Positions 10,658-31,689 of a stretch of DNA of 47,494 nt are shown one piece after another (position 1 is the stretch's first letter; each line of letters begins with the position of its first letter). The notes beneath the pieces are model-generated. The model had not been told where the DNA came from. It saw only the letters and a list, made by a program, of their open reading frames with translations, and searched no databases. Where the stretch lies: the sequence record SRR2962707_3475; one strand, given 5' to 3'. The translations under genes and the position numbers were made by a program.

Positions 10658-10669
10658 CAGTTTTCCCGG

Positions 10670-11290: not shown

Positions 11291-12225
11291 TTAACCAGTT
11301 TGACCAGTTCTTTGTTGGCTTCGAGGTTCTTTTTAAGCTGAGCCTCCAGCGCCGCACCGGACGTCATCAGCGGACCCGGGGGGTACTGCTTGGTGATGAA
11401 CTTGGCGGTTTTCGATTCCGGGTTATTCAGAACTTCGTGAATCGCAGCGGCGTAGGCGTCACGCGCTTCGTCGCTCATGCCTTTCGGACCGGCCAGCAGG
11501 AACTGGAAGCCGAGACCGGTTTCCATCACGCCGAGATCGATCAGCGTCGGCTGATTGGGCGCCTGTACCAGCGGCTTGGGTTCCGCGGATGCCAGGATCA
11601 CCAGTTCGCCCGCGGCGACCAGCGGTCCCTGTACACCACCGCCCCAACCGACATTGGCGTCCTTGGCGACCAGCGCGTTGATGGCGGATTTGCCGCCCTT
11701 GCCGCGCAGGTGGTTGACGGTGATGCCATAATGACGCGCCACCATTTCAGCACCGGCCTGAACCTGGTTGCCCCAGTTGGCCCAGACGATGTTGGTGCCG
11801 CTCTTGGCAGCCTTGACCATGTCGTCGAGCGACTTCCAGCCGCTGTCGGCACGTGCCAGCACGGCCATTTGCGAACCCGCCGTCATCGTGATGTAGGTGA
11901 AGTCATCGATCGAGATGTTCTCGTTGCCGATGGTCGCAAAGTCGAAGGTGGTGTTGATTGCGAGACCAACCGTCTGACCGTCGGCGGGTTCATTCTTCAA
12001 CTGCGCCGCCATCACGGCACCGCCGCCACCGGCTTTGTTTTCCGGGATGATGCGCCAGCCCTTAAGGGCTTCCAGTTCTTCGGCAAGGGCGCGGGCCTGG
12101 GTGTCGGTACCGCCGCCGGCGCCGAAGCCGATCCAGAACTTGATCGGGCCTTTGGGTGCCCATTCGGCGTGAGCCGGACCGGCAAACAGCGCAAGCGCTG
12201 CGAGTAAGGGTAAAAAGCGTTTCAT
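11287..12225 (-). CDS. tctC: Tripartite tricarboxylate transporter binding protein (Bug/TctC)
   Basis: Signal peptide MKRFLPLLAALALFAGPAHA, FGAGGGTD, ENKAGGGG and PADGQT motifs; start trimmed to the ATG with a GAGGAG RBS. Confidence 0.9.
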   Translation of the reverse strand: MKRFLPLLAALALFAGPAHAEWAPKGPIKFWIGFGAGGGTDTQARALAEELEALKGWRIIPENKAGGGGAVMAAQLKNEPADGQTVGLAINTTFDFATIGNENISIDDFTYITMTAGSQMAVLARADSGWKSLDDMVKAAKSGTNIVWANWGNQVQAGAEMVARHYGITVNHLRGKGGKSAINALVAKDANVGWGGGVQGPLVAAGELVILASAEPKPLVQAPNQPTLIDLGVMETGLGFQFLLAGPKGMSDEARDAYAAAIHEVLNNPESKTAKFITKQYPPGPLMTSGAALEAQLKKNLEANKELVKLVK

Positions 12226-12308
12226 TGACGTGCTCTCCTCTGGTTTGAAGTGTCGCTCATGTTTTGTTGGGTTCTCAAGTTTCTTCCGTCTTTTTTTATT
12301 TGTACCGA

Positions 12309-13088
12309 TTACATCCCGTAGGACTCGGTAATTTCGACCGGTCTGTGACCGGGCGGCAGCTGATAGCGCTGGAACAGGATCGGGACATCCTGAATGGTGA
12401 AATCCTTGATGTCCCAGACGGTACCTGTAGTGCCTTGCGGCAGAAGCAGATGCTGACATGCCTGTTCGTCCAGCGCACGGCAGCTGATGGCGTGTTCCAT
12501 ACGCACCGTCGGCAGATTGAAGCGGTCGATCAGCATGCGGTGCAGGGATGAGCCGTTGAGGTCCTCGATCGCCTGATCGAGATAGACCCGCCCATGCTCA
12601 TAGGTGAAATAGACGCTCGAATACGCCGGCGGCTGCTGATCGAACCACACCAGCCGGTCGACGCGCACGCACCTTTTGACCTGCAATGATTCCTGCCACG
12701 GTCCGGGGTTGCTATCCACATTCACGGCAAGGGTGCGCACAAACGGCATCATGTATTTGCCGGTATCGGGATCCCTGTAGCGGTAAACGAAGACTTCACT
12801 GACCAGCGAACTGCGATCGGCGATGAACGTGCCGGTGCGGCGATGGCGGACGACAAGGCCGTTGCTGACCAGTTGCGCCAGCGCCTTTTGCACGGTCCCG
12901 ACGCTGACCGGGAGCTTTTCCGCAAGCGACGTTTCCGTCGGCACCCGTTCGCCGGGCTTGAAGCAGCCGGAAATCACGCACTCGGAAAACGCTTCCACCA
13001 GACGCTGGTATTTCGGCATGCCGTTGGCGGGCATGCCGTCACCGACGGATTGCAATAGCGCATCGATGGCAATTTCCTGGGTCGACAT
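12309..13088 (-). CDS. GntR-family regulator, HutC/UTRA-type
   Basis: PGERVPTETSLAEKLPVSVGTVQKALAQL...GTFI winged helix; C-terminal region fits UTRA. Confidence 0.88.
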   Translation of the reverse strand: MSTQEIAIDALLQSVGDGMPANGMPKYQRLVEAFSECVISGCFKPGERVPTETSLAEKLPVSVGTVQKALAQLVSNGLVVRHRRTGTFIADRSSLVSEVFVYRYRDPDTGKYMMPFVRTLAVNVDSNPGPWQESLQVKRCVRVDRLVWFDQQPPAYSSVYFTYEHGRVYLDQAIEDLNGSSLHRMLIDRFNLPTVRMEHAISCRALDEQACQHLLLPQGTTGTVWDIKDFTIQDVPILFQRYQLPPGHRPVEITESYGM

Positions 13089-17308: not shown

Positions 17309-19015
17309 ATGAATAGATCGATGACCGCCACGCCCCCTGCAACAGAGACCCTGCTGATCGTCAACGCCGATGTCTGGTCCCTTGACGACACTCCTGTATC
17401 CGGTGATGCGATCGCGATCCGGGACGGTAAAATCGCCGCCGTCGGCACCCGTCAGCACTGTGACGCCGTGAGCGGCCCGGCAACATCCGTGATCGATGCC
17501 GGGGGGCATTCCGTCATCCCGGGACTGGTCGACGGCCATGCGCATATGGACCGTGAAGGCCTGAAGGGTGAAATCCCGTCACTGGCCGGCTGCCGATCCA
17601 TTGCCGACGTGAAGGAAAAAATCCGCGCCCTCGTTCAGGCGGCCGAGCCCGGCGAATGGATCGTGACCATGCCGCTTGGCTCGCCGCCGGATTTCCGGGG
17701 CATGCCGGAATCCCTCAGCGAAGGACGTTGGCCGACCCGCCATGACCTGGACGAGGTCGCGCCCGACAACCCGGTCTATATCCGCGCCATCTGGGGTTAC
17801 TGGCGGCACACATTACCGTTGGTGTCGATCGCCAATTCCAAAGCGCTTGAAATCGCCGGGATCGATCGCAACACCCCCGCCCCGTTTCCTGGTATCGAGA
17901 TCGAACACGACAGCGGTAGCGGCGACCCGACAGGGGTCTTTATCGAAAACAACTACATGCCGCTGGTCGAGTTCACGTTGATGAAATGTGCCCCGCGGTT
18001 TTCCGCCGCACAACGGCTGGCCGGGCTCAGCCGGTCCATGGCCATCTACAACGGCTTCGGCACCACCGCGGTCTACGAAGGTCACGGTGTCGCAGACGAG
18101 GTACTGGCGGCGTATCAGGGGCTGCGCGAGACCGGCCCTCTGCCGGTACGTTCGCACCTGACGCTGAGCCCGCGCTGGGGCGGGGCAACGGCGGACACCG
18201 TTCGCGAATGTCTGGGCGAGTGGATGTCCTGGCTGCGCCGCCGCGGTCTGGGTGATGACTATCTGCGGGTCCAGGGCCTTTATACCGAACCCGGCATCAA
18301 CGCCGAGAACAGCCTCCGCGCAGCCGAGGGCGGCAGCTACACCGGCTGGGCCGGATTCTATTACGATGCGGGCCTGCCCCCCGAAGCGCTGGGCGTGCTG
18401 ATGGAAGAATCCGCCATGGCCGGAATCCGGGTTTCGGGGATCGGAATCGGCATGCTCGAAGGCTATGCCAGGGCGCACCGCCGTGCTTCCATTGCCGATG
18501 CCCGCTGGGTCGTCGAGCACATTTCGTGGGTCAGCCCTGAAGAGATCGAGATCGCGCACGACCTCGGCGTTGTCGTGACCACCCACACCAACCGCTATCT
18601 GTGGAAAGAGGGGCCGATGCTGCTGGCACAATCGCCGGCCCGCGACCCCAACGAGCTTGTCCCGCTCCGGCGTCTTCGCGATGCCGGGGTGCCGGTGTGT
18701 CTGGCGACGGACAACGTGCCGCCGTCGATGTTCAACCCGATCAGCCAGGCGGTGAACCGTCTTGGCCGCGACGGCAGCCCCGTCGCACCCGATCAGGCCC
18801 TGAGTCTCGAAGAAGCGCTGCAGAGTTCCTGCCGCAACGGGGCTTATCTGTGTTTCGCCGAAGACCGCCGTGGCATGCTGCGCCCCGGCATGGATGCCGA
18901 TGTGGTTATTCTCGACAGGTCGATCAGAAAAGACGATGTGTCGGACATTGCCTCAACAACCGCCGAGACGACCATCGTCGGCGGCAAAATCGTCCATGAT
19001 ACAAAAAACCCCTAG
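17309..19015 (+). CDS. Metal-dependent amidohydrolase family 3 (YtcJ-like); start may be 17321
   Basis: IPGLVDGHAH (HxH), VEH, ATD and GMDADVVILD motifs. Confidence 0.88.
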   Translation: MNRSMTATPPATETLLIVNADVWSLDDTPVSGDAIAIRDGKIAAVGTRQHCDAVSGPATSVIDAGGHSVIPGLVDGHAHMDREGLKGEIPSLAGCRSIADVKEKIRALVQAAEPGEWIVTMPLGSPPDFRGMPESLSEGRWPTRHDLDEVAPDNPVYIRAIWGYWRHTLPLVSIANSKALEIAGIDRNTPAPFPGIEIEHDSGSGDPTGVFIENNYMPLVEFTLMKCAPRFSAAQRLAGLSRSMAIYNGFGTTAVYEGHGVADEVLAAYQGLRETGPLPVRSHLTLSPRWGGATADTVRECLGEWMSWLRRRGLGDDYLRVQGLYTEPGINAENSLRAAEGGSYTGWAGFYYDAGLPPEALGVLMEESAMAGIRVSGIGIGMLEGYARAHRRASIADARWVVEHISWVSPEEIEIAHDLGVVVTTHTNRYLWKEGPMLLAQSPARDPNELVPLRRLRDAGVPVCLATDNVPPSMFNPISQAVNRLGRDGSPVAPDQALSLEEALQSSCRNGAYLCFAEDRRGMLRPGMDADVVILDRSIRKDDVSDIASTTAETTIVGGKIVHDTKNP

Positions 19016-19428
19016 CCGCGCCTGACGCTACCCGTGGTGCCGTCGACATCGAGCGCTTCGCCGTCTTTGACCGACGACCAGAAAGCCTCATCCGTGATCA
19101 CGACAATCGGCACCTCGGCCAGGAATGCACCCTGCACCACCGAGGCGTCCGGCAATTCACGCATTACCAGCGCGCACGGGTGGGTGCCGTGCACCTTGAG
19201 CTGATACAGGAACCGCCAGGCCCCGGCCGAGCCCCGTGTCGCCGGTAAAACCAGTGCGGCACCGGCCAGCGACCGGCCGCGCAGATCATTGGACTGCCCG
19301 ACCACGTTGCCGGTTCGGATGTCGACGTCCCCCAGAAACGACAGCGCACTCCCGGAGACCATCGCCGGCCCGCCTGCCTGCCCCTTGACGACGCCGCGTC
19401 CCTGCCACGTGGTGCCCGGCTCAGTCAT
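19012..19428 (-). CDS. Aconitase X small (swivel) subunit, DUF126
   Basis: LSFLGDVDIRTG, RGS (catalytic Ser position) and VDGTTG; the ATG at 19428 overlaps the large-subunit stop. Confidence 0.87.
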   Translation of the reverse strand: MTEPGTTWQGRGVVKGQAGGPAMVSGSALSFLGDVDIRTGNVVGQSNDLRGRSLAGAALVLPATRGSAGAWRFLYQLKVHGTHPCALVMRELPDASVVQGAFLAEVPIVVITDEAFWSSVKDGEALDVDGTTGSVRRG

Positions 19429-20692
19429 TGGGGCGCAGCCGTGGCTGGAAGCGGCCGGTGACGGCGGACTCCACCGCCCGCTCACCGGTCGTGAACAATG
19501 TCGGGCACTGGATCATGTCGCGGACGTAATGGGCCTGCTTGGCGGAGTCGACGAGAATGGTCTTGATCGGGGGCGGCTCCACACCCAATGACGGATCGGG
19601 TGAACAGGTCCGGGCAAAGTGGCATGAAATCGGGCAGGTATCGGAAATGACTTTCGCCCCCGCCGCGATGATCGGCACCAGCAATCCCTGATCACGGGCC
19701 ATCTGGCGCACCGTGCGATTGGTGGTGATCCAGCACTGCACGCCGTCGGCGATGCGGCGGCCTTTCAGCAGTTCCGCATAGTATTTGAGTTCCTCGAAAG
19801 ACGCATGCGGACAACCCAGGTGGACAAATTCGAACCCGGTTTCCAGGCCGTTGCAGAATTCGGCATACACCCAGTCGATGTCGTCTTCGTCGATATCGAC
19901 GTCCGGCAGTTTCAGCGATGCAATATCCGTATCCTCATCCCACGGCGGGGTGACTCCCGGCAGGATGAACATCGCCACGCCCCCCGACGTCGCCATGCCG
20001 ACCCCCAGCGCATCGAGCTCATCAAGATCGGGTCTCCGCGACAGACCGCTCAGCACCGGAACCCCGTTCTGGACCTTGCGGCCGATGGCGTAGCCCAGTG
20101 CGGTAAAGTCGGCGGTGCCCCGGGCGCGGGCACGGACCCGGACATGATGGGTGGGGCGGCGGTTTTCATTCTGATGCAGGCCGAAGCGGGGGTAGCGTCC
20201 GGTCAGCCCGGCATAGACGGCAAAGAACCCGTCCCGGTTGGCGCGTGCACCCAGCACGGAGTTCGAGAACACCGTCACGCCGCTTTCGATCGACGCGATA
20301 TGCATGTTGAACGTCGGCCAGTGTCCGGCCCAATAGGGTGTGCAGGTAAAAGACGTTGCGCTGCCCATGGCGCGGTGCGCAGCTTCGGCGCGGGATTGCA
20401 GTTTGGCGAGGGATTCAGGCGCCCCGGTTTCCTGCCAGTTGCCCATGTCCGCATTGGCGATGTTGGTGGAGACCGGCACTTTCATTTTCGCGCCCCGGAC
20501 CGCCAGATCCTCGATCAGACCGACATCATCCAGATACATCGCCATCCCGGCATGCACGTGCGCGTATCCGACCTCGACCATGTCCGGCGCATCAAAGGCT
20601 TCGCCCAGTTGCACCAGCGCCTCCATGGCCTGACGCGCGGTATCGCCGTCATCGCCGTTGAGCAGGGATTTGTCGTAATCGGACAGGCGCAT
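19421..20692 (-). CDS. Aconitase X large (catalytic Fe-S) subunit, DUF521
   Basis: MRLSDYDKSLLNG N-terminus, FTCTPY, NSVLGARANR, LGCPHAS and SDTC motifs. Confidence 0.9.
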   Translation of the reverse strand: MRLSDYDKSLLNGDDGDTARQAMEALVQLGEAFDAPDMVEVGYAHVHAGMAMYLDDVGLIEDLAVRGAKMKVPVSTNIANADMGNWQETGAPESLAKLQSRAEAAHRAMGSATSFTCTPYWAGHWPTFNMHIASIESGVTVFSNSVLGARANRDGFFAVYAGLTGRYPRFGLHQNENRRPTHHVRVRARARGTADFTALGYAIGRKVQNGVPVLSGLSRRPDLDELDALGVGMATSGGVAMFILPGVTPPWDEDTDIASLKLPDVDIDEDDIDWVYAEFCNGLETGFEFVHLGCPHASFEELKYYAELLKGRRIADGVQCWITTNRTVRQMARDQGLLVPIIAAGAKVISDTCPISCHFARTCSPDPSLGVEPPPIKTILVDSAKQAHYVRDMIQCPTLFTTGERAVESAVTGRFQPRLRPND

Positions 20693-20695
20693 CTA

Positions 20696-21514
20696 TCAGC
20701 TTCCTATCAAAAGGCCGCCGTTGAGACGGCGCAGGGCTGCCATAATACTCAGCGAAACGATCCGGCTGGTCCGGTTGTTCAGCGGCGACGGGAAGTTCTG
20801 CGACACCATTTCCAGTTCCACTTCGTCGGAAATCACCGTCAGCGTATGCCGCGCACCGGGCAACGTGCCGTCGGCGCGGATCCGCACTTCGGTCTTATCA
20901 AGCCCGATCCCGGCCAGCCCCAGCGTCACCGCAACATTGAAATGGCGCGGAAAATTTTCCGCCGCTTCGCGTGCGGTGCCGTCCAGCACCGGCACCGGTC
21001 CGGTTTCAGCCGGACCCAGATCAATCCCGTGTTCGGCGATGTAAGGTTCGTGCACCAGCGACGCCGGATGAATATGCGATGTCAGCACCACGGAACTGAT
21101 GCTGCCTTCGCGTGCGGCACGGAGGATATCCAGCCCCGGTAGGGTGCCGCCGGCGATCTGCAGCGTGGCCCCGGTCTCATGGGTCAGATCGATCAGGTCC
21201 ATGTTCGCGGCCAGTGCACCGACGCTGATCGCGATGACCATGCCGCCGGCCCGGATTGTCGGTTCGACCACATCGCGAAAACCTTCATACGTCGCACATT
21301 CCACAAGCACGGCATCGTATCCCGGCGCTTCGTCGGCAGAGATGATCGGCACATCCAGACCGAAGCTCTCAGCCTTCGATTTGGCTTTCGCCTTGTCGCG
21401 TGCAGCGATCGCAACGATCTCGATCGTGCCGCTTTCATCTTCCTGAACCTTGCGGACAATCTGCTCGCCCACATTGCCGAAACCACCGATGACGATACGT
21501 GTTTTGGAACTCAT
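20696..21514 (-). CDS. L-aspartate dehydrogenase (NadX/DUF108) family oxidoreductase
   Basis: GGFGNVG, VECA, SVGAL, GTAREAAENFP.HFNVA and N.RTS motifs. Confidence 0.85.
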   Translation of the reverse strand: MSSKTRIVIGGFGNVGEQIVRKVQEDESGTIEIVAIAARDKAKAKSKAESFGLDVPIISADEAPGYDAVLVECATYEGFRDVVEPTIRAGGMVIAISVGALAANMDLIDLTHETGATLQIAGGTLPGLDILRAAREGSISSVVLTSHIHPASLVHEPYIAEHGIDLGPAETGPVPVLDGTAREAAENFPRHFNVAVTLGLAGIGLDKTEVRIRADGTLPGARHTLTVISDEVELEMVSQNFPSPLNNRTSRIVSLSIMAALRRLNGGLLIGS

Positions 21515-21547
21515 TTTTCCTGCTTCTTACCGTTGAGAAATGAATTG

Positions 21548-21575
21548 ATTTTGTATTCTATACTGTATACAAAAT
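21548..21575. promoter_or_regulatory. Inverted repeat, candidate GntR/FCD operator
   Basis: ATTTTGTAT-N10-ATACAAAAT in the divergent promoter; a near copy lies at 23814-23834. Confidence 0.65.
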
Positions 21576-21619
21576 TTTGCTGCAAGTCGTAACCCAAAGA
21601 CCATAAAGGATTCTACCGC

Positions 21620-23011
21620 ATGCCGGACAGGGCCCCGATCACATCTCAATTGGCAGCTTTTATCGCCGACTTCACCCCCGACAGTCTGCCCGTCCCGGTC
21701 ATGGATTACACCCGCAAGCTGGCGTCCGACGGGATCGGCGCCCTGTTCGCCGCCATTCATCCCAGCGTCACGGCCAGCCAGGGAATCGGTGATTTCGCGG
21801 AATCCATTGCCGGTACCGGCAAGGCCACACTGATCGGGCGCGGCAAGAAAGTCGATCCGGTCAGCGCCGCACTTGCCAACGGTACCCTCGGCTATGCCGC
21901 CGATTTTGAACCGCATCACCCCGAAGCGATTTTGCATCCCATTGCCGTCATGATCCCGACCGCCCTTGCGGTATCGGAAACCGAAGACCGCAGCGGCAGC
22001 GATTTTCTGGCCGCCATCGCGCTCGGCTGTGAAATCGAGTACCGGGTCTCAATGGCGATGAACCCGCGCGAACTTTATGCCCGCGGTTTTCACCCGTCCG
22101 CCGTAACCGGCAGCTTCGGCGCCACGGCAGCGGCAAGCTTTCTATTCGGTCTGAACAAGGATCAGGTCGTGGCCGCCCTCGGGCTTGCCGCGCTGCAGAC
22201 CTCGGGCCTTCTGGCCTGGCAGGACGATCCGCGCGAAGATGCACGTCCCTTCCAGATGGGCCTCGCGGCCCGCAACGGCGTCATGTCGGCGATGCTGGCG
22301 CGGAACGGCTTCGGGGCGCCGGACCGGATTTTCGACGGCGGGCACAACGTGCTCGATGCCTTCAGCGGCGTCGCCACCACCGCACCGTTGACCGATGGGC
22401 TCGGCACCGTCTGGGACGGCGTCATGGAACTGGCGATCAAGCCTTATCCGTGCGTGTCATTCCTGCACCCGGCGCTTGATGCGCTCACCAACCTGCTGAA
22501 CACGCATCAGCTCAAATCTCAGGATATCGCAAAGATCGAACTGCGCTTTGCCGAAGCCGGGGCGCACTGCGTCGACGATAACCCGCTGAAGGGTCACAGC
22601 GCCCAGTACATTCTGCCGGTACGTGCGGCCATGGGCCGGTTGTCGTATCTCGATCTGTTCATCGACCGCCGTGACACCGACCCGGAAGTCGCCCGCCTTG
22701 CCGCCAGTGCCGGTGTCATTCGCGATCAGGGTGAATTCGACGCCCGCTTTCCGGATTTCTATGTCGGCGAGGTGATCCTGACCCTGACCGACGGCAAGAT
22801 CGTTTCCGAAACGTCCGAAATCGCCCGCGGCTATCCCGAGCAGCCTTTGTCGCAACAAGACCTGGACGCCAAGTTCGCCGAGCTTGCCGGCTGCGTTGCC
22901 GATGATGCCCGCACCACGGCCCTGATCGACGCCATCAAGGGGCTTGGCGCGGCGAAAACCGTCGATGCTCTGGCGGCACAGCTTTCGGCGCCGGCGAACG
23001 CCCCGGTCTGA
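21620..23011 (+). CDS. MmgE/PrpD family protein (2-methylcitrate dehydratase / iminodisuccinate epimerase / cis-aconitate decarboxylase fold)
   Basis: AALANG, LHP, RGFHPS, KPYPC and RGYPEQPLS...KF motifs. Confidence 0.9.
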   Translation: MPDRAPITSQLAAFIADFTPDSLPVPVMDYTRKLASDGIGALFAAIHPSVTASQGIGDFAESIAGTGKATLIGRGKKVDPVSAALANGTLGYAADFEPHHPEAILHPIAVMIPTALAVSETEDRSGSDFLAAIALGCEIEYRVSMAMNPRELYARGFHPSAVTGSFGATAAASFLFGLNKDQVVAALGLAALQTSGLLAWQDDPREDARPFQMGLAARNGVMSAMLARNGFGAPDRIFDGGHNVLDAFSGVATTAPLTDGLGTVWDGVMELAIKPYPCVSFLHPALDALTNLLNTHQLKSQDIAKIELRFAEAGAHCVDDNPLKGHSAQYILPVRAAMGRLSYLDLFIDRRDTDPEVARLAASAGVIRDQGEFDARFPDFYVGEVILTLTDGKIVSETSEIARGYPEQPLSQQDLDAKFAELAGCVADDARTTALIDAIKGLGAAKTVDALAAQLSAPANAPV

Positions 23012-23035
23012 TCCAACAGTAAAGGTATCGGATAC

Positions 23036-23776
23036 ATGAACACGCCGTCAGATCAATCATCGCAGATCGCAAAGGGCGGCAAGGTGCTGTACGGCGCGCC
23101 GCTGGGCATTCTGATGCTTGAAGCCCGGTTCGCCCGCATTCCCGGCGACATGGGCAATGCGGAAACCTGGCCGTTCCCCGTTCTGTATCGCGTGATACGC
23201 GGGGCCGACCCTGAACGCGTCGTGCGCAACGGTGCAGAGGGTCTGCTGGATGCTTTTATCGACGGCGCAAAAGACCTCGTTGATCTGGGCGCCGAAGCCC
23301 TGACCACCAACTGCGGCTTCCTGTCGATTTTCCAGAGCCAGATTTCAGCCGCCGTAGGCGTTCCCGTCGCCACTTCGTCGATGATGCAGGTCCCCTGGGT
23401 GCAGACACTGCTCGCACCCGGCAAACGCCCGGGCATCGTCAGCATCAGCAGCGCCACCGTCACCGATGCGCATCTGGATGCGATCAATGTGCCACGCGAC
23501 ACCCCGCTTGAAGGCACCGACGAGGACGGCGAGTTTTTCCGCGTCATCGTCCGTGCGGAGAAGCCCGACCTCGATGTTGCGCGGGCCCGCACGGATGTGA
23601 TCAACGCCGCCCGCCGACTGACGGAAAAGCACCCCGACGTCGGCGCCATCGTTCTCGAATGCACCAACATGGCACCCTATGCCCGCGACGTCGCGGAAGC
23701 GACAGGTCTGGCGGTTTTCGATATATATTCACTGACCAACTGGCTACATGCAGGGATCAGACCGCGCCGGTTTTAA
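23036..23776 (+). CDS. Asp/Glu/hydantoin racemase superfamily protein
   Basis: LGILMLEARF, two catalytic-type Cys in TTNCGF and LECTNM. Confidence 0.87.
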   Translation: MNTPSDQSSQIAKGGKVLYGAPLGILMLEARFARIPGDMGNAETWPFPVLYRVIRGADPERVVRNGAEGLLDAFIDGAKDLVDLGAEALTTNCGFLSIFQSQISAAVGVPVATSSMMQVPWVQTLLAPGKRPGIVSISSATVTDAHLDAINVPRDTPLEGTDEDGEFFRVIVRAEKPDLDVARARTDVINAARRLTEKHPDVGAIVLECTNMAPYARDVAEATGLAVFDIYSLTNWLHAGIRPRRF

Positions 23777-23813
23777 CCGGACCACGGCGAGGTTGACGCG
23801 CCACGGCCCCAAT

Positions 23814-23834
23814 GCATACAATTTAGAATACAAA
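23814..23834. promoter_or_regulatory. Second copy of the 21550-21570 operator, upstream of gntR
   Basis: Reverse complement TTTGTATTCTAAATTGTATGC vs TTTGTATTCTATACTGTATAC: 18/21 identical. Confidence 0.65.
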
Positions 23835-23860
23835 CGCGATACGGATCAGGAGGCACATAC

Positions 23861-24550
23861 ATGGCAGCTCGAGATACGGCTGATACCGAAGCCAAGGTGT
23901 CCTCTTCACACCGCGCCTACGAAATGCTCCGCGACCGTCTGCTGCGGTTTTCGATTCTCCCCAACCAGAAAATCAACGAAGTCACGCTGGCGGCGGAACT
24001 GAACGTCAGCCGCACGCCGCTGCGCGAGGCGCTGAATCGCCTGGTGGCTGAGGGTTTGCTGGTCAATCGCGAACGCGGCCTGTCGGTGCCGGACCTGGAG
24101 CCGGACCTAGTCTGTGAACTGTTCGAGGCCCGCGTCGAAATCGAATGCAGCATCGTCCGTCTGGCCTGCGAACGCGCATCGGACGAAGCCCTTGCGGAAG
24201 TTTCCGCTTTTGTCGCGGAAAGTGCCGCCGAATCGCCCGAGGCCTCGACCGACCGTCTGATCGAACTTGATATTCATTTTCACAGCACACTCGCCAAGCT
24301 TTCCGGCAACCGCATCCTGCAAAAGACTCTGGCCAATCTGAATGACCGCATTCATCTGGTGCGCTGGATCGCCATGGAAGGCCGGCGCGACCGTACCCAG
24401 AGTGAACACCGCGACATCCTGGATCGCATCATGGCCCGCGATTCCGATGGCGCCGTTGCCGCGATCCGCAAACACATCATTCACCGGAACGAAGATATCA
24501 TGGCCGCCATCAAGGCCGCCTATGGGCATGTCTATACCCTGTCGGCGTGA
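23861..24550 (+). CDS. GntR-family regulator with FCD domain
   Basis: VSRTPLREALNRL helix-turn-helix; DIHFH, SGN and EH FCD motifs; AGGAGG RBS. Confidence 0.92.
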   Translation: MAARDTADTEAKVSSSHRAYEMLRDRLLRFSILPNQKINEVTLAAELNVSRTPLREALNRLVAEGLLVNRERGLSVPDLEPDLVCELFEARVEIECSIVRLACERASDEALAEVSAFVAESAAESPEASTDRLIELDIHFHSTLAKLSGNRILQKTLANLNDRIHLVRWIAMEGRRDRTQSEHRDILDRIMARDSDGAVAAIRKHIIHRNEDIMAAIKAAYGHVYTLSA

Positions 24551-24596
24551 CCTGCCTGCCGGTTACATAAACATTCAAAGATAGTCAGGGGGAGGC

Positions 24597-25337
24597 ATGG
24601 AACGCTATGTGATCATCGGATCCGGCTCCGGGATCGGTGCCGCGATCGCCCGCTCACTGGCCGGCCCTGAGACACAACTTCTCCTGCACACAGGACAGAA
24701 TCAGGAACGGCTGGACCGTGTGGTTGCGGATTGCCGCGACAGCGGCGCCGATGTCTCGACATGCCTTGGTCTGACCGATGACGAACAGCTGTTTAGCTCA
24801 GTGGCCGCGTGGGCCGAAAATGTCCCCGACGGCATGCTCACCGGTTTCGTCTTCGCCGCCGGCTACGCCAAGATCGGCATCATCGATGAAACCCCGGTTG
24901 AGGTTCTCGAAGAGGCGCTCCGCGCCATGCCCATCGCCTTTCACAAACTGGCCAAGATGCTGGTGCCTAAACTGACACCGTCCCGCGGCCGCATCGTCTG
25001 TATCAGCGCCTTCGGTGCGCACCGCTCAAAGTCCTACAGCTACGCCGCGACGGCCCCGGCAAAAGCAGGCCTTGAGGCCCAGGTGCGGGTCTATGCCGCC
25101 AATCTGGCGCCGCGCGGGATTACCGTGAATGCTGTTGTGCCGGGATTCGTCGAAAAGGAGCCGGGGACGCCGTCGTCGCTGACCCCGGCCGAATGGGAGA
25201 AGGTCAGCGCCGGCATCCCCATGAACAGAATCGGCCGTCGCGACGAGATCGCTGCGGTGGCCGGTTTCCTGCTCAGCGAACAGGCCAGCTACATCACCGG
25301 GCAGAGCATTCATGTCAACGGCGGGCTAACCCTATAA
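24597..25337 (+). CDS. SDR family oxidoreductase with a Y-x6-K active site
   Basis: IGSGSGIG, YAATAPAK, VNAVVPG and YITGQSIHVNGG motifs. Confidence 0.88.
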   Translation: MERYVIIGSGSGIGAAIARSLAGPETQLLLHTGQNQERLDRVVADCRDSGADVSTCLGLTDDEQLFSSVAAWAENVPDGMLTGFVFAAGYAKIGIIDETPVEVLEEALRAMPIAFHKLAKMLVPKLTPSRGRIVCISAFGAHRSKSYSYAATAPAKAGLEAQVRVYAANLAPRGITVNAVVPGFVEKEPGTPSSLTPAEWEKVSAGIPMNRIGRRDEIAAVAGFLLSEQASYITGQSIHVNGGLTL

Positions 25338-25406
25338 TGGTCCGGAGTTTGTTTGTCTAAAAGGGTTTTCTGGGGCTTGTCTGATGTCGACATTTGTGCA
25401 TAATTC

Positions 25407-25420
25407 TTTGCATACAAACT
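25407..25420. promoter_or_regulatory. Candidate operator TTTGCATACAAACT
   Basis: 13/14 match to the palindrome at 31676-31689; upstream of the ThDP enzyme. Confidence 0.55.
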
Positions 25421-25477
25421 TTCCGGCGCCGTCAAACGTGCCGGAAACTGCTTAAATGCCGGAATAAAAGGTGATCC

Positions 25478-27169
25478 TTGGAAAACAAGCTGAACGGTGC
25501 GGAAACAATGGTGCGGATGCTCGAAGCACATGGCGTACGCCATATCTTCGGGCTTTGTGGCGATACGACATTGCCCTTCTACGATGCAATGCACCTCCTC
25601 AATCACGATATCAAACACGTCCTGACCCGCGATGAGCGGTCCGCCGGATACATGGCGGACGCCTATTCCCGCGTGACCGGCCGGCCCGGCGTCTGCGAAG
25701 GCCCGTCCGGTGGGGGCGCCACCTATATTCTGCCGGGGCTGATCGAGGCCTCGGAAAGTTCCTACGCCATGCTGGGCATCACCACCGACATCTCGGTGGC
25801 GTCGTATGGCAAATACCCGCTGACCGAAGTTGATCAGGAAGCCATGATGCGTCCCCTGACCAAGTGGAACACCGTGATCCGCCGCGCCGATCATATTCCG
25901 CGCATGGTCCGGGCCGCGTTCCGGGCAATGACGACCGGCCGTTCCGGCTCGGCGCACATCGGTCTGCCCTACGATGTCCAGTATGATCCCGTCGACCCGA
26001 CCGATGTCTGGGCCGACAGCAATCTTCACACCTATCCCGCGTACCGCACGTCGCCCGAACAGGACGCCATCGAAGCCGCCGTGGATGCCATTCTGTCGGC
26101 GAAGAAACCGCTCATCGTGTGTGGCGGCGGCATCGTCATTTCGGATGCCATGTCCGAGCTCGACCGTCTTGCGACACGTCTAGACATTGCCGTGGCAACA
26201 TCGATTTCCGGACAGGGGTCGCTGGCCGACACCCATCCGAACGCGCTCGGCGTCGTCGGCTCCAACGGCGGCACCGACCAGACATGGGAAATGATGCTAG
26301 CGGCCGATCTCGTGATTTTCATGGGCTGCCGCGCCGGGTCGACCACGACCGCACGCTGGGAAGCGCCAAGCCCCGGCACACGGATCGTCCACTTCGATTC
26401 CGACCCCATGGTCATCGGCGCCAATTATCCGACGGAAGTCGGCGTCGTCGGCGATCTGCGCAATGCCCTGCGCATGGTGAACGCCGAGCTGGACCGCCGC
26501 AAACAGGGTGAAGCCAGTTTCGGCGGTGCGGCGGCTGTCGCCGACATCAAACGCCGCAAGTTTGAAATCTTCGATGCCATCGCCAACGGCGACGACATGC
26601 CGATCCGCCCCGAACGCGTCATCGCGGCGCTGATGAACGTGTTGCCCGCAGACGCCACGGTGATTTCGGACCCGGGCACGTCTTGCCCGTATTATTCGGC
26701 CTATTACCAGCAGTCGCTGGCCGGGCGATATTTCATCACCAACCGCGCCCATGGCGCGCTGGGGTATTCGCTCTCGGCGGCGCTCGGCGCCTGGTACGGC
26801 CGCAGCGACAGCAAGGTCGTGGCGCTGATGGGTGACGGCTCGTTCGGCTTCACCTGCGGTGAACTGGAAACCGTGTGCCGCTCCAACGCACCGATCACGT
26901 ATGTCGTCTTCTCCAATTCCAACTTCGGGTGGATCAAGGCCAGCCAGATGGCCGACAAGGGATCGCGTTATTACAACGTCGACTTCAACCGCACCGATCA
27001 GGCCGCCGTCGCGGCAGCCTACGGCGTCAAATCATGGAAGGTCGAAAACCCGGCTGATCTTGAGCGTGTCCTCAAGGAAGCCGTTGAGCATGACGGCCCG
27101 ACGCTGGTCGACGTGATGACGCAACCGCTGGAAGAAGCCAACGCACCGGTCCGTCGTTGGATGGGCTGA
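25478..27169 (+). CDS. Thiamine-diphosphate-dependent enzyme (acetolactate synthase large-subunit-like)
   Basis: RDERSAG (conserved Glu) and MGDGSFG...N ThDP motif; TTG start. No small subunit is adjacent, so probably catabolic. Confidence 0.9.
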   Translation: MENKLNGAETMVRMLEAHGVRHIFGLCGDTTLPFYDAMHLLNHDIKHVLTRDERSAGYMADAYSRVTGRPGVCEGPSGGGATYILPGLIEASESSYAMLGITTDISVASYGKYPLTEVDQEAMMRPLTKWNTVIRRADHIPRMVRAAFRAMTTGRSGSAHIGLPYDVQYDPVDPTDVWADSNLHTYPAYRTSPEQDAIEAAVDAILSAKKPLIVCGGGIVISDAMSELDRLATRLDIAVATSISGQGSLADTHPNALGVVGSNGGTDQTWEMMLAADLVIFMGCRAGSTTTARWEAPSPGTRIVHFDSDPMVIGANYPTEVGVVGDLRNALRMVNAELDRRKQGEASFGGAAAVADIKRRKFEIFDAIANGDDMPIRPERVIAALMNVLPADATVISDPGTSCPYYSAYYQQSLAGRYFITNRAHGALGYSLSAALGAWYGRSDSKVVALMGDGSFGFTCGELETVCRSNAPITYVVFSNSNFGWIKASQMADKGSRYYNVDFNRTDQAAVAAAYGVKSWKVENPADLERVLKEAVEHDGPTLVDVMTQPLEEANAPVRRWMG

Positions 27170-27221
27170 CCGCTTAACCCGGGGACCGGACAGCCGGTTT
27201 CGCAAACAGGAGAAACGCGCT

Positions 27222-28454
27222 ATGCAGATCGTGGTCATCGGCGCCGGCATCGTCGGCGTTTCAACGGCCATATGGCTGAAACGATCCGGCCACGAGGTGA
27301 CACTGATCGACCGTGCCGCCCCCGGACAGGGTACGTCCTACGGCAATGCCGGCCTTCTGGCTTCAAGCTCGGTAGCGCCGGTGACGTCGCCCGGTCTGAT
27401 CGGCAAGATTCCCAGCATGCTGTTCAACCCGGAGTTTCCGCTGTTCATGCGCTGGGCGCACCTACCCCGCCTGATGCCGTGGCTGATGCGCTACCTGTCG
27501 CACGCAAACGAAGCCGACACCCGGCGCATCGCCCGCAACCTGGCGCACATCGTCACCGACACCATCGAGCAGCACAAAGCCATTGCCGGCGGCACCCCCG
27601 CCGAAAAATGGATCCACGACTGCGATTACAAATTCGCCTACCAGAGCCGTGCTGCGTTCGAATCCGAAGCCTTCACCTGGGCCCTGCGCCGCGAAGCCGG
27701 CTTCGACCCCGAGATCATCGAGGGCGAAGCGATCCGCGAACTGGACCCGGCGCTGGGACCGTCGATCAAGTGTATCGCGATGATGAAGAACCACGGCTTT
27801 ATCAGCGATCCCGGCAACTATGTCGCCGATCTCGCCAAGGTTTTCGAAAATGAAGGCGGCCGCGTCGTTATGGCTTCGGTTGAGGATTTTGAACTCACGG
27901 ACGGCAAGATTGCCGCCGTTCTCAGCACGGCCGGACGTTTCGAGTGCGGCCATGCCGTACTGACCACGGGCGTGTGGTCAAAGCCGCTGATGAAAAAACT
28001 CGGCCTCAACGTGCCTTTGGAAACCGAACGCGGATATCACATCGTTTTCCGCAATCCGTCGGTCAAACCCCGGACCCCAACCATGATCGCCGCCGGAAAA
28101 TTCGTCGCCACCCCGATGGCGGCGGGTCTCAGGTGTGCCGGTGTGTTGGAGTTCGGCGGTCTTGATGACGATAAGTCGGACGCCCCGCTCAAATTACTGC
28201 GCAAGAAAGTGATGGAAGCCTTCCCGACGCTGACGGCGTCCGAGGAAGATACCTGGCTCGGCCACCGTCCGGCCCCGTCGGACAGTCTGCCGCTGATCGG
28301 TGAAGTCCGCAACACGGGGATCTACACGGCATTCGGCCATCATCACATCGGCCTGACCGGCGGTCCGAAAAGCGGCCGCATGATCGCGCAGATGATTTCC
28401 GGCGAACCCGGTAACGTCGACCCCGCACCTTTTGATCCGAACCGGTTTTCCTGA
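27222..28454 (+). CDS. FAD-dependent D-amino acid dehydrogenase / oxidase family protein
   Basis: GAGIVG, TSYGNAG, ERGYH, WLGHRP and FGHHHIGLT motifs. Confidence 0.9.
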   Translation: MQIVVIGAGIVGVSTAIWLKRSGHEVTLIDRAAPGQGTSYGNAGLLASSSVAPVTSPGLIGKIPSMLFNPEFPLFMRWAHLPRLMPWLMRYLSHANEADTRRIARNLAHIVTDTIEQHKAIAGGTPAEKWIHDCDYKFAYQSRAAFESEAFTWALRREAGFDPEIIEGEAIRELDPALGPSIKCIAMMKNHGFISDPGNYVADLAKVFENEGGRVVMASVEDFELTDGKIAAVLSTAGRFECGHAVLTTGVWSKPLMKKLGLNVPLETERGYHIVFRNPSVKPRTPTMIAAGKFVATPMAAGLRCAGVLEFGGLDDDKSDAPLKLLRKKVMEAFPTLTASEEDTWLGHRPAPSDSLPLIGEVRNTGIYTAFGHHHIGLTGGPKSGRMIAQMISGEPGNVDPAPFDPNRFS

Positions 28455-28486
28455 TCAACGGGGATACAAACCGCCGTTATACATGA

Positions 28487-29977
28487 TCATTCTCTGGCGT
28501 GGTTGGGACGAATTCTCAGGAAGTAGACGAACATCACCGTCAGCAGCAACAGGCCGATACTGATCGGGCTTGAGACGAAGACCAGCGGGTTCAGCTCGCT
28601 GGTGATCAGGGCCCGGCGCATGTATTCCTCGAGATACGGACCAAGAATAATCCCCATCAGCATCGGGACCAGCGGATAGGACATGACCCGCAGCAGATAG
28701 GCGAAGACCCCGATCCCCAGCGCCATCCACATCTGCACCACGGAATACGACGAGGCAAAAGTGCCGACCATCGAGACCATGGCGATGAAAGCATACAGCA
28801 CGCCCCGGTTCAGCTGGGCGATCCGCATGTAATACGGCCCGAACATAATCACCGAGATAAAGACAAAGCTTGCGGCAACGAACAGGGCCGCGAACATCGG
28901 CGCAATTGTGTGCAGCTCCGTCGTCAAAAGCCCCGGCCCCGGGACAAGACCGTGGATCAGCAGCACGCCGAAGATGATCGCCGTCACCGAATCCCCCGGA
29001 ATACCGAGCGTCAACAACGGCACCACGGCGCCGCCGCACATGGCGTTGTTGGCTGCTTCGGATGCGGCCAGACCCTCGTGTGAGCCGTTGCCGTATTTTT
29101 CAGGTTCCTTGGTCACACGTTTGGCTTCGGCGTAGGCAATGAAGGAAGCCATCGACGCGCCGCCACCGGGCAGCATGCCGACCAGCACGCCGATCACCGA
29201 ACTTTTGACGTATGTGATAAAACCGACCTCGCGGATTTCCTTCAGCGTCGGAATGAAATCCCGGTGCCGGGGTTTGAAATCTGCAGCGATCGACATCCCT
29301 TTCGCAACCGGACCGCCCTGAACCAGAAGCTCACACACGGCAAACAGGCCGATCACGGCGGGCAGTAATTGCACGCCTTCAATCAGGTGATAGCTGCCGA
29401 AATCGAAACGCCCCATCGCCACCATGTTGTCGAAACCGACAGTGGAAACCATGATGCCAAGCGTAATCGAAGCCAGCCCCCGCCAGATCGATCCTTTGGC
29501 GACAATGACCACACTCACGACGGCCATGAACACCAGGGCGAATTTATCCGGGGTCTGGAACAGCAGGGCAAACTGGCTCATCGGCACGGCGATGAACATC
29601 AAAACAATGGCACCCAGCATGCCGCCGATGCTCGACGCAAATGCATCCAGGCCAAGCGCTTTCGCCCCGTGCCCGCGTTTCATCAGCGGGTGGCCTTCCA
29701 TCGTCGTGATGGCGCCCGACGGTGCGCCGGGGATGTTGACGATGATCCCGGTAACGCTACCGGCGTAGATCCCGGCCATGAAAATACCCATGACCATCAC
29801 CAATGCGTCCGTCAACTGCATGGCGAATGTAAAGGGCAGCAGCAGGGCAACAGCCAAGGTTGCGGTCAGACCGGGAATGGCACCAAACACCAGCCCCATC
29901 AAAAATCCGGCGACCAGACACAGAAAGGTCACAGGGTTTGTCAGTGCGGTAAAGCCGGAGAGGACCTCGAAGCTCAT
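28487..29977 (-). CDS. tctA: Tripartite tricarboxylate transporter large permease
   Basis: GAIPGL, NIPGAP, EAANNA and LGIPGD...HGLVPGP canonical motifs. Confidence 0.93.
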   Translation of the reverse strand: MSFEVLSGFTALTNPVTFLCLVAGFLMGLVFGAIPGLTATLAVALLLPFTFAMQLTDALVMVMGIFMAGIYAGSVTGIIVNIPGAPSGAITTMEGHPLMKRGHGAKALGLDAFASSIGGMLGAIVLMFIAVPMSQFALLFQTPDKFALVFMAVVSVVIVAKGSIWRGLASITLGIMVSTVGFDNMVAMGRFDFGSYHLIEGVQLLPAVIGLFAVCELLVQGGPVAKGMSIAADFKPRHRDFIPTLKEIREVGFITYVKSSVIGVLVGMLPGGGASMASFIAYAEAKRVTKEPEKYGNGSHEGLAASEAANNAMCGGAVVPLLTLGIPGDSVTAIIFGVLLIHGLVPGPGLLTTELHTIAPMFAALFVAASFVFISVIMFGPYYMRIAQLNRGVLYAFIAMVSMVGTFASSYSVVQMWMALGIGVFAYLLRVMSYPLVPMLMGIILGPYLEEYMRRALITSELNPLVFVSSPISIGLLLLTVMFVYFLRIRPNHARE

Positions 29978-29978
29978 A

Positions 29979-30479
29979 TCAGAAAATTCCCTCTGTGATT
30001 CCGGCGGGCAGTGACAGCCCGAATAGGGTCATAAAGAAAAGCCATCCGGCCGCGGTGACCCCGGCGGCGATACAACTGGACGTCAGCAGAGAGAACGGCA
30101 GTGAAATTTCACGCTCGCGCTCGAAAAGCCAGGCAATCGTGCCGGTGTAAAGAAATGTTGCAATCCAGTAGCCCAAAGGCGCGAAAGCCCAGACGAACAA
30201 GACCGTGGCCAGAATCAGCACGATGCTGCGCGGGGCAATTTTAACGCTGCGGTCGACTTCTTTTGCATCTTCTTCGGAAACCGTATCGGCAAGTTCCTGC
30301 CACAGGATCCGGACACAGGAGACAAATAAAATGAGTGAAAGAATAATCGGCAGGAATGCCGGGCCAGGTTCGCCAAGCTGGAAGGGACGCGGGAGGCTCA
30401 TCGCCTGGGCGAAATACCCGACATCCAGAATAATCAGAAAGAGAGCGAACAGCGCTTGGCGGTTCATCTTTGAAATCAT
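29979..30479 (-). CDS. tctB: Tripartite tricarboxylate transporter small subunit
   Basis: PGPAFLP and C-terminal FGLSLPAG; 4-5 TM segments; start uncertain (30479 or 30467). Confidence 0.85.
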   Translation of the reverse strand: MISKMNRQALFALFLIILDVGYFAQAMSLPRPFQLGEPGPAFLPIILSLILFVSCVRILWQELADTVSEEDAKEVDRSVKIAPRSIVLILATVLFVWAFAPLGYWIATFLYTGTIAWLFEREREISLPFSLLTSSCIAAGVTAAGWLFFMTLFGLSLPAGITEGIF

Positions 30480-30508
30480 GGCTGAAAAAATACCACCCTT
30501 GTAAGAGA

Positions 30509-30538
30509 ACACCAGGCCGGGGTTGGTCGGCCTGGTGT
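30509..30538. terminator. Intercistronic stem-loop between tctC and tctB (terminator or mRNA stabiliser)
   Basis: ACACCAGGCCG-N8-CGGCCTGGTGT, 11-bp perfect stem, weak U tract on the minus strand. Confidence 0.6.
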
Positions 30539-30576
30539 CTCCACTATATCAAACTGAGCTTAAGTCCGTCCTGCAC

Positions 30577-31673: not shown

Positions 31674-31689
31674 AGTTTGCATGCAAACT
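31674..31689. promoter_or_regulatory. Perfect 16-bp palindrome AGTTTGCATGCAAACT, candidate operator
   Basis: Self-complementary; about 110 bp upstream of tctC; near copy at 25407-25420. Confidence 0.6.

Follow-up and report, generated by a model that had tools for sequence, protein, structure and literature searches.

Aconitase X (AcnX) is an enzyme family for which, as a whole, only two reactions are known, the removal of water from cis-3-hydroxy-L-proline (C3LHyp) and the dehydration of mevalonate 5-phosphate. C3LHyp dehydratase, represented by AtAcnX, is found next to an NAD(P)H-dependent reductase, while mevalonate-5-phosphate dehydratase (Type IIb; e.g., TkAcnX, PDB 7cnr) is a two-subunit enzyme of archaea. 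The structural study of Watanabe et al. (2021, PMC8184944) reports that the residues Asp203, Thr72, Trp35, and Ile206 of AtAcnX are fully conserved in Types I and IIa, with Type IIa keeping all C3LHyp-binding sites; four bacterial subclasses were left without a function in that study, and subclasses IIc to IIf were described as uncharacterised and as having no landmark residue of either known enzyme. Here, we describe a gene cluster that is built around a two-subunit AcnX (encoded by acnXL and acnXS) in a stretch of DNA of 47,494 nucleotides from sequence record SRR2962707_3475 (the whole of which is referred to as the window), and that includes genes for an aspartate-dehydrogenase (AspDH)-family oxidoreductase (nadX-like), a PrpD-family protein, a racemase-like protein, and a GntR-family regulator. 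An initial annotation, made from the letters alone, had proposed positions 19012 to 25337 of the window as a candidate undescribed pathway.

Several enzymes outside the AcnX family provide points of comparison as well. In the β-hydroxyaspartate cycle, β-hydroxyaspartate is converted to iminosuccinate and then to L-aspartate by BhcB, a pyridoxal phosphate (PLP)-dependent dehydratase, and BhcD, an iminosuccinate reductase of the ornithine-cyclodeaminase family; the chemistry is the same as that proposed here, but the pair encoded in the window, an Fe-S AcnX and an AspDH-family enzyme, would be non-homologous. With regard to the AspDH family, a preprint of 2026 describes human ASPDH as an enzyme that uses NAD(P)H to reduce the enamine 2-aminomuconate, which yields an L-amino acid, and whose catalytic His is shifted by two residues relative to AspDH (bioRxiv 10.64898/2026.06.05.730449). 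In human ASPDH, the family thus has a member that converts a 2-amino-enoate dicarboxylate by reduction to an L-amino acid, and it can therefore serve as an enamine/imine reductase. Finally, Gonner et al. (2025, PMC12290011) state that all characterised members of the PrpD family (2-methylcitrate dehydratase, cis-aconitate decarboxylase, iminodisuccinate (IDS) epimerase, and methylsuccinate isomerase) use a 1,4-dicarboxylate backbone and (de)protonate C2, with the reaction passing via an enolate intermediate.

Judging from the observed gene content, operators, conservation across genomes, and residue patterns, we consider it very probable that the cluster is a catabolic unit of functionally linked genes that is conserved and co-regulated and whose AcnX has a new specificity. 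As predicted from sequence, this set of about a dozen regulator-controlled genes, kept together in many bacteria, probably breaks down a carboxylate-rich amino acid. The strongest link within it is that between nadX-like, acnXL, and acnXS, which are translationally coupled here, on the minus strand. The nadX-like gene (20696..21514; Asp_DH_C, 69.8 bits, and NAD_binding_3, 52.3 bits) is the first gene of this operon, and its stop is followed after 3 nt by the ATG of acnXL, the gene for the large, catalytic subunit (19421..20692; PF04412, 359 bits against a cut-off of 31.5). The stop of acnXL in turn overlaps, as ATGACTGA, the ATG at 19428 that is the likely start of acnXS, the gene for the small (swivel) subunit (19012..19428; PF01989, 71.7 bits against a cut-off of 27); the acnXS reading frame is open up to a GTG at 19485 (19012-19485).

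With PF04412 and PF01989 on separate, adjacent polypeptides, the AcnX of the window is of Type II. The best-scoring solved structure for acnXL is 7cnr_A (6.9e-49), followed by 7cnp_A (3.9e-46), and the best PDB matches of acnXS are 2hi6 (1.7e-18) and 7cnr_B (1.6e-17). Residues were read from HMMER alignments against those described by Watanabe et al. (PMC8184944), with PDB chain numbering taken as that of the paper plus 10, the offset at which named residues (e.g., Cys273, Glu292, Cys508, and Lys530) match. Family and fold are those of the C3LHyp dehydratase, and the catalytic set is kept: Ser70 of the AtAcnX swivel domain and Glu292, Ser293, Lys530, and Tyr534, the residues by which the carboxylate and the C3 hydroxyl are held, correspond to Ser86 of acnXS and to Glu136, Ser137, Lys385, and Tyr389 of acnXL, all conserved in the clade, with Ser86 present in at least 95% of 57 sequences. 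The invariant residues of acnXL are C117, E136, S137, C294, C353, C357, K385, and Y389, among which Cys117, Cys294, and Cys353 correspond to Cys110, Cys283, and Cys342 of TkAcnX and Cys357 is a fourth invariant Cys. As read from this alignment, the Cys ligand pattern is of the archaeal three-Cys [4Fe-4S] type; relative to AtAcnX, Ser449 is replaced by Cys294 and the [2Fe-2S] ligand Cys510 by Ile.

By contrast with the catalytic set, the AtAcnX residues that contact the ring and ring nitrogen of C3LHyp are all replaced (Asp203 by His47, Ile206 by Met50, and, in the small subunit, Thr72 by Gly88 and Trp35 by Leu51). The C3LHyp dehydratase equivalog model NF051439 scores 247.5 bits with the large subunit and 56.3 bits with the small subunit, against a cut-off of 700, and the reductase in the window is of the AspDH family and its neighbours are PrpD-like, thiamine diphosphate (TPP)-dependent, and racemase-like enzymes rather than Lhp genes. 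Mevalonate-5-phosphate dehydratase shares the two subunits and the three Cys with the window AcnX, but the window host is bacterial, two of the three archaeal phosphate-contacting side chains checked in the large subunit differ (Ser50 is replaced by Met50 and Asn53 by Tyr53, while Asn79 is kept), and no mevalonate-pathway family was seen among the 41 window open reading frames (ORFs) scanned with Pfam. From the features read here, the window AcnX fits the description of subclasses IIc to IIf in PMC8184944. When 1.84 billion cluster representatives were searched exhaustively with HMMER, 1933 matched at E<=0.001 and 387 at E<=1e-30; the nearest full-length representative at 50% clustering scores 573.6 bits at 60% identity and the next 313.8 bits at 40%. 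Among the 133 full-length sequences of the best 150 representatives, only that of the window's own clade (P0121) carries His45-x-His47, Met50, and Tyr53, while in the other representatives listed position 47 is S, A, D, L, P, G, V, or Y. By its sequence, the window AcnX is thus a discrete clade with a His45-x-His47/Met50/Tyr53 signature of its own.

Two further observations concern the AcnX family at large. Across the 133 full-length representatives (P0121-P0270), the three Cys are almost universal and pocket positions 47 to 53 vary widely, and this variation suggests that the family may hold many further specificities. In addition, the chromosome of a close relative encodes a second two-subunit AcnX that is only 31% identical to that of the window (L088:9794-11442; G001:C1:2177793-2179004 and downstream; also L089:9654-11479), lacks the Cys294 equivalent, has DTG in place of ESG, and lies by genes for a sulfatase, a GntR/UTRA regulator, tctCAB, and a family-III CoA-transferase; in another genome (G004), a similar AcnX paralog is found by a PALP enzyme, an AMP-ligase, and a CoA-transferase. 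The second AcnX of the close relative appears to represent another AcnX subclass, and the presence of so different a second AcnX on one chromosome indicates that AcnX paralogs with distinct specificities coexist.

The remaining genes of the first-described region lie on the plus strand, divergent from the nadX-like operon, and comprise prpD-like (21620..23011; MmgE_PrpD_N and MmgE_PrpD_C), the racemase-like gene (23036..23776), gntR (23861..24550; FCD, 103.2 bits, and GntR, 53.7 bits), and a gene for a short-chain dehydrogenase/reductase (SDR; 24597..25337; adh_short_C2, 143.9 bits). All seven genes were found where the initial annotation had placed them, and Pfam and NCBIfam scans agree with its family labels. 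Its statement that nadA/nadC, prpB/prpC, UbiD/UbiX, proline racemase, and mevalonate-pathway genes are lacking nearby also held among the 41 ORFs scanned with Pfam, although a PutA gene does occur. Furthermore, the repeated operator that was said to link the divergent units is present: the window holds two copies, and no more, of the 18-mer TTGTATTCTAnnnTGTAT, one in the nadX/prpD intergenic region (21551-21568, plus strand) and one upstream of gntR (23816-23833, minus strand), and none of 100 shuffles had any match, while the 10-mer alone reached two matches in 3 of 100 shuffles. The first copy lies in the operator region of the divergent nadX-like/prpD-like promoter (21549..21574; TTGTATTCTATACTGTATACAA, which contains the palindrome TGTATACA) and the second in the corresponding region before gntR (23811..23836).

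Where that annotation ended the unit at 25337, however, the unit continues: related operators also precede a TPP/DadA-like operon and tctCBA. The former operon (25478-28454) consists of a gene for an acetolactate-synthase-like TPP enzyme with three TPP domains (25478..27169, plus strand) and, starting 53 nt after it, a gene for a DadA-like FAD-dependent amino-acid dehydrogenase (DAO; 27222..28454, plus strand; Pfam DAO, 180.6 bits). Convergent to these genes, on the minus strand, are tctA (28487-29977), tctB (29979-30512), and tctC (30577-31626), which Pfam assigns to a tripartite tricarboxylate-type transporter. A related operator is found upstream of the TPP gene (25407..25420; TTTGCATACAAACT) and a perfectly palindromic form upstream of tctC (31674..31689; TTTGCATGCAAACT); the related 14-mer TTTGCATRCAAACT has three matches in the window, a number reached in none of 100 shuffles. 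The product of gntR has the features of the FadR/FCD subfamily of GntR regulators, an N-terminal winged helix-turn-helix and an FCD effector domain, together with palindromic operators in its own predicted regulon. Phylogenetic footprinting supports the operators: TGTATACA is kept upstream of nadX-like in 18 of the 33 related loci in which nadX-like stands directly before acnXL, and these 18 are exactly those with the gntR-type arrangement, the other 15 having a different gene upstream, in the same direction; likewise, of the 14 gntR-type loci with a tctC gene, 7 have TTGYATRCAA upstream of it, at a distance of 36-161 nt. The best reading of positions 19012 to 31626 is thus a single catabolic regulon under GntR(FCD) control, of which the seven genes first described, without the core TPP enzyme, DAO, and TctCBA, are a part.

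The gene set is conserved together well beyond the window, which is one of two points on which the initial annotation had said its proposal could fail. At E<=1e-20, the acnXL protein has 961 relatives, of which the 120 highest-ranked each show 62% identity or more. One genome per species was scanned, which gave 95 encoding stretches; the best 80 were kept, and the 48 of these with at least 8 kb on each side of acnXL are referred to as full-flank loci. Genes were counted by tblastn with the window proteins over at least 60% of query length; longest-ORF calling with neighbour clustering, in which long shadow ORFs in the GC-rich DNA hid all but 39 of the 80 acnXL genes, served only to find extra families. 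By these counts (full-flank loci, then all 80), acnXS was present in 46 and 74, nadX-like in 40 and 56, prpD-like in 37 and 52, the TPP enzyme in 30 and 38, the racemase-like gene in 25 and 38, the DAO family (at least 30% identity) in 25 and 33, SDR in 21 and 27, gntR in 19 and 23, and tctA in 15 and 16, with tctC in 13 full-flank loci. All six enzymes other than AcnX occur in nine full-flank loci and none of the six in one. In 33 loci, nadX-like immediately precedes acnXL on the same strand. Within Rhodobacteraceae loci, identity is 83-85% for the TPP enzyme, compared with 60-77% for the other enzymes. According to record titles, two loci (L001 and L002), 99% identical to the window, are from metagenome-assembled genomes (MAGs) of Rhodospirillales; other carriers are Rhodobacteraceae (Salipiger, Pseudooceanicola, Sedimentitalea, Chachezhania, Maritimibacter, and Roseovarius), Pelagibius, Thalassobaculaceae, Geminicoccaceae, Stella, Reyranella, Burkholderiales and Betaproteobacteria MAGs, and Acidimicrobiia.

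Gene content varies around this core. TAXI-TRAP or polar-amino-acid ABC transporters replace TctCBA in other loci, with the polar-amino-acid type in nine. Acidimicrobiia-type loci without nadX-like have three tandem Ldh_2-family genes and an aminotransferase gene in the cluster, and a tartronate-semialdehyde-reductase-like gene adjoins the cluster in two loci (L058 and L044). Two additional families, an MLE-type enolase-superfamily gene (20 of 80 loci) and a Glyoxalase_3 gene (17 of 80 loci), recur elsewhere and have no counterpart in the window cluster. The MLE-type gene was considered as a substitute for the racemase-like gene and rejected, as both are present in eight loci; the MR_MLE gene at 4989-6104 of the window was likewise rejected as its ortholog, at 26% identity. 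The recurrent enolase (L012:8061-9182 and 19 other loci) matches the structural-genomics entries 3i6t, 3my9, and 3i6e (E 7e-106 to 1.5e-97), which are labelled only 'muconate cycloisomerase', so that solved structures of this orphan partner may already exist.

Among the partner enzymes, the nadX-like protein falls below every AspDH equivalog cut-off, with the best score for PRK13302 (186.8 against 253) and a score of 107.9 against 206.55 for TIGR03855. Nevertheless, it shares with NadX and human ASPDH the Asp_DH_C and Rossmann domains, keeps the FPRxxNVA motif, and has a His (His223, in at least 95% of 54 sequences) that aligns with His193 of Thermotoga maritima AspDH, the catalytic His; its geometry is that of AspDH, unlike the shift in human ASPDH. 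What sets it apart from NadX, besides the scores, is a location in an operon with AcnX and outside any nadA/nadC context. The prpD-like protein carries both Pfam domains of the MmgE/PrpD family and scores negligibly with 2-methylcitrate dehydratase equivalogs (34.4 bits for a cut-off of 950, 21.1 for 575, and 18.5 for 458). Its matches to solved structures are weak, with E of about 1e-30 (2hp3, 5.7e-30; 7bra, 1.1e-29), the closest being IDS epimerase and bacterial IRG1. Residues that correspond to the catalytic pair of IDS epimerase, His99 and Tyr145, are kept, and of its carboxylate-binding residues Asp88, His150, and Lys266 are kept, while His85 is replaced by Tyr and Lys198 by Arg; a Tyr is also found in the aligned Bacillus subtilis IRG1, and this Tyr does not tell an epimerase from a decarboxylase. 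Unlike described MmgE/PrpD systems, the window locus has no prpBC or itaconate context.

The racemase-like protein belongs to the PRK07475 subfamily of the two-Cys Asp/Glu/hydantoin-racemase superfamily (306.8 against 231), with a Pfam score slightly below the cut-off (30.6 against 31 bits). The two Cys noticed at the outset are well conserved (Cys93 in all 36 ungapped rows and Cys209 in 35 of 37). An AlphaFold model (pLDDT 87.3) gave as top Foldseek matches hydantoin racemase 2eq5 (E 1.3e-9, TM 0.60-0.68), arylmalonate decarboxylase, and aspartate racemase, which are matches at superfamily level only; a PDB sequence search gave a best E of 0.13. On this model, the protein has the two-domain fold of the superfamily with one catalytic Cys per domain, and its reaction could be that of a racemase, epimerase, isomerase, or decarboxylase. 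The TPP enzyme is below the cut-off of all NCBIfam models, and its best PDB match is BbmA (8x3x, 2.3e-73), on which literature searches returned nothing relevant, with glyoxylate carboligase, an enzyme whose product is tartronate semialdehyde, second (5e-65). The DAO reaches 180.6 bits with NCBIfam PRK00711 (cut-off 383), and the DAO enzymes of the related loci are also DadA-like. As for transport, TctC of the window had no NCBIfam match, and its PDB matches are at family level only and give no clue to a ligand, while the ABC binding protein of other loci has EhuB as its best NCBIfam match, at 59.5 bits against a cut-off of 190.9.

How these enzymes might act together is suggested by the sole bacterial AcnX precedent, in which a β-hydroxy-α-amino acid is converted to an enamine/imine and then to an L-amino acid by a dedicated reductase. 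We tentatively propose a mechanism of the same kind, with a dehydratase and an enamine/imine reductase. AcnX would remove water from a polar, carboxylate-rich β-hydroxy amino acid, with the Ser of acnXS taking the C2 proton and the Fe-S cluster the C3 hydroxyl to give a 2-amino-enoate (enamine/imine). The nadX-like enzyme would then convert this product to an L-amino acid by NAD(P)H-dependent reduction, in the way that Pyr2C reductase acts after C3LHyp dehydratase. The prpD-like and two-Cys racemase-like proteins would interconvert stereoisomers (four, if the substrate is β-hydroxyaspartate) by enolate chemistry. The DadA-like enzyme, TPP enzyme, and SDR may form a branch for the D-isomer and 2-oxo acid (oxidative deamination, decarboxylation, and carbonyl reduction), in which D-forms would be oxidised to a 2-oxo-3-hydroxy acid and decarboxylated to tartronate semialdehyde, with a final reduction by SDR or, in L044 and L058, by the tartronate-semialdehyde-reductase-like enzyme. 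TctCBA would import the substrate. The most likely substrate class is that of 2,3-disubstituted succinates, because of the AspDH ancestry of the reductase, the 1,4-dicarboxylate rule of the PrpD family, the aspartate-racemase-superfamily protein, and the DadA-like enzyme. The stereoisomers of β-hydroxyaspartate are the simplest candidate within that class, but that β-hydroxyaspartate itself is the substrate seems doubtful.

Several lines of evidence agree with this mechanism, beginning with the operon structure, the shared operators, the gene counts across genomes, and the kept AcnX catalytic set. The Ldh_2 family includes imino-acid reductases, and the presence of Ldh_2 genes and an aminotransferase gene in Acidimicrobiia-type loci that lack nadX-like also fits, as do the tartronate-semialdehyde-reductase-like gene and the relationship of the TPP enzyme to glyoxylate carboligase. 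So do the DadA-like DAOs and the polar-amino-acid ABC and TAXI-TRAP transporters of other loci, the AspDH-type His and FPRxxNVA motif of the nadX-like protein together with the enamine reduction described for human ASPDH in the preprint, and, in the prpD-like protein, the His/Tyr pair of the two characterised epimerases together with the 1,4-dicarboxylate rule as given by Gonner et al. Other observations weigh against it. As judged by the alignment, the amine-binding residues of AtAcnX are lost (Asp203 to His47 and Thr72 to Gly88), which would disfavour an α-amino group in the same pose and would be in keeping with an additional anionic group or a hydroxy acid that carries no amino group. A route from β-hydroxyaspartate to aspartate or oxaloacetate needs no TPP enzyme, and the TPP enzyme seems too well conserved, both in occurrence (30 of 48 loci) and in sequence (83-85% identity), for a side branch; DAO, the racemase-like gene, and SDR are each missing from about half of the full-flank loci. 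Nor do the periplasmic binding proteins, with a weak EhuB match and family-level TctC matches, point to a particular ligand, and Ldh_2 and SDR enzymes could equally be 2-hydroxy-acid dehydrogenases. The original suggestion of epimerisation, dehydration, and imine redox steps on an aspartate-like compound is thus partly supported, in that it fits the tight gene coupling, the AspDH-type His, the 1,4-dicarboxylate rule, and the precedent of an AspDH-family enamine reductase, while the loss of the Asp/Thr pair argues against a simple analogy to C3LHyp.

The main rival is a hydroxy-polycarboxylate route without an amino group, which we regard as rather unlikely. Here, the prpD-like enzyme would dehydrate an α-hydroxy di- or tricarboxylate (a citrate, tartrate, or citramalate analogue), AcnX would rehydrate the enoate to the β-hydroxy isomer, the racemase-like protein would isomerise the enoate or act as an epimerase, the nadX-like enzyme or SDR would oxidise the product, and the TPP enzyme would decarboxylate the resulting 2-oxo acid. 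Such a route could account for the gain of His45, His47, and Tyr53 in AcnX alongside the loss of Asp203 and Thr72, which suggests an extra anionic group, for the TctCBA transporter, and for the conservation of the TPP enzyme and a dehydrogenase; the MLE-type enolase and Glyoxalase_3 genes of other loci could point to lactone or enoate chemistry. Enzymes of the PrpD and aconitase families (PrpD and AcnB) cooperate in this way in the methylcitrate cycle of propionate metabolism (PMC5144071). The DadA-like D-amino-acid dehydrogenase in 25 of 48 loci, the AspDH-family enzyme with a canonical catalytic His in 40 of 48, the polar-amino-acid-type ABC transporter in nine loci, and the aminotransferase of Acidimicrobiia-type loci all point instead to a nitrogen-bearing substrate.

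Alternatively, the same dehydratase/reductase logic could apply to a cyclic or otherwise non-succinate β-hydroxy imino or amino acid (e.g., a hydroxypipecolate-, dihydroxyproline-, or hydroxyectoine-like compound), with the racemase-like protein as a 2-epimerase; we consider this improbable. The steps proposed for hydroxyectoine with EutABC resemble a triad of racemase-like protein, dehydratase, and reductase, such as that encoded here, and the best, if weak, NCBIfam match of the ABC binding protein is EhuB; the racemase-like protein, however, has no match to an EutA model at E<=0.001. A full-length PutA gene (33250-37011, minus strand) lies 1.6 kb beyond tctC, but it is near the cluster in this window only: no PutA that is over 40% identical across more than half of its length occurs in any of the 80 loci, and a conserved linkage of PutA to the AcnX cluster was thus rejected. 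Moreover, while both known bacterial AcnX enzymes use a cyclic β-hydroxy imino acid (PMC8184944), the ring- and nitrogen-contacting residues of AtAcnX are all replaced here, and the PrpD family is so far, according to PMC12290011, confined to 1,4-dicarboxylates. Finally, an ordinary C3LHyp dehydratase, the other outcome that the initial annotation had named as fatal to its proposal, is highly improbable: some metagenome sources label relatives 'cis-L-3-hydroxyproline dehydratase' and NF051439 is the best NCBIfam match, but the score of 247.5 is far from 700, four of four substrate-specific residues differ although C3LHyp sites are fully conserved in Type IIa (PMC8184944), the Cys pattern is of archaeal type with Cys510 replaced by Ile, the neighbouring genes are conserved with AcnX across phyla, and Lhp-type hydroxyproline families were seen neither in the window cluster nor in the eight related loci that were annotated.

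Further genes of the window were noted on either side of the regulon. A second DAO-family gene (32025-33248), divergent from tctC, directly abuts PutA, and neither of these two genes stays beside the AcnX cluster in the other loci; the second DAO was ruled out as an ortholog of the cluster DAO, with 23% identity to the latter and 24-30% to the DAOs of related loci. On the other side, an Amidohydro_3 protein of 568 aa (17309-19015, plus strand) is encoded with a 4-nt convergent overlap with the stop of acnXS; no NCBIfam model reached its cut-off with this protein, and its gene is kept in the three closest loci only (L001-L003), i.e., in 3 of the 48 full-flank loci and 3 of all 80. Positions 4989-13088 (minus strand) hold a separate catabolic-looking cluster with the MR/MLE enolase-superfamily gene, an ApbA/PanE-like reductase, a 3-hydroxyisobutyrate-dehydrogenase-like gene, a TauD-family dioxygenase, TctA and TctC homologues, and a GntR/UTRA regulator, and positions 2163-4960 encode an RpiR/SIS regulator and, after it, a 665-aa protein in which a PfkB sugar kinase is fused to DUF2090.

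None of the families in this cluster is new, and that bacteria have uncharacterised AcnX subclasses was already in print (PMC8184944). The initial idea of a third AcnX function stands to the extent that the AcnX of the window is neither known enzyme, while the question itself is not new, subclasses IIc to IIf having been flagged in 2021. In the open literature on AcnX, DUF521/DUF126/DUF108, PrpD, and hydroxyaspartate or aspartate dehydrogenase, as judged from titles and abstract openings and with subscription journals outside the scope, we found no description of this cluster or of a third AcnX reaction. Within that literature, the gene set, the regulon structure, the residue signature of the clade, and the link between AcnX and an AspDH-family enzyme all seem to be undescribed. 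In its most specific form, the proposal would make this clade the third catalytic specificity of the family, an Fe-S dehydratase of β-hydroxyaspartate-type amino acids that acts with a dedicated AspDH-family iminosuccinate reductase in a regulon of about ten genes, as a PLP-independent and non-homologous counterpart of BhcB/BhcD; we regard this form as unlikely. If true, a PrpD-family epimerase, the PRK07475 racemase-like subfamily, and an orphan acetolactate-synthase-like TPP decarboxylase would each receive a first function, and the regulon would let bacteria use all stereoisomers of one compound.

The AcnX cluster is a strong and directly testable lead for enzyme discovery. The clade can be tested through its residue signature, a conserved set of partners (an AspDH-family reductase, a PrpD-family enzyme, a TPP enzyme, and a two-Cys racemase-like protein), and a defined regulator with its operators, and record titles name cultured carriers, among them Stella vacuolata ATCC 43931, Salipiger mucosus DSM 16094, and strains of Pseudooceanicola and Chachezhania. 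Solving the function of this AcnX clade would give functions to several orphan subfamilies in one step and would reveal a carbon and nitrogen source of marine and soil Alphaproteobacteria.

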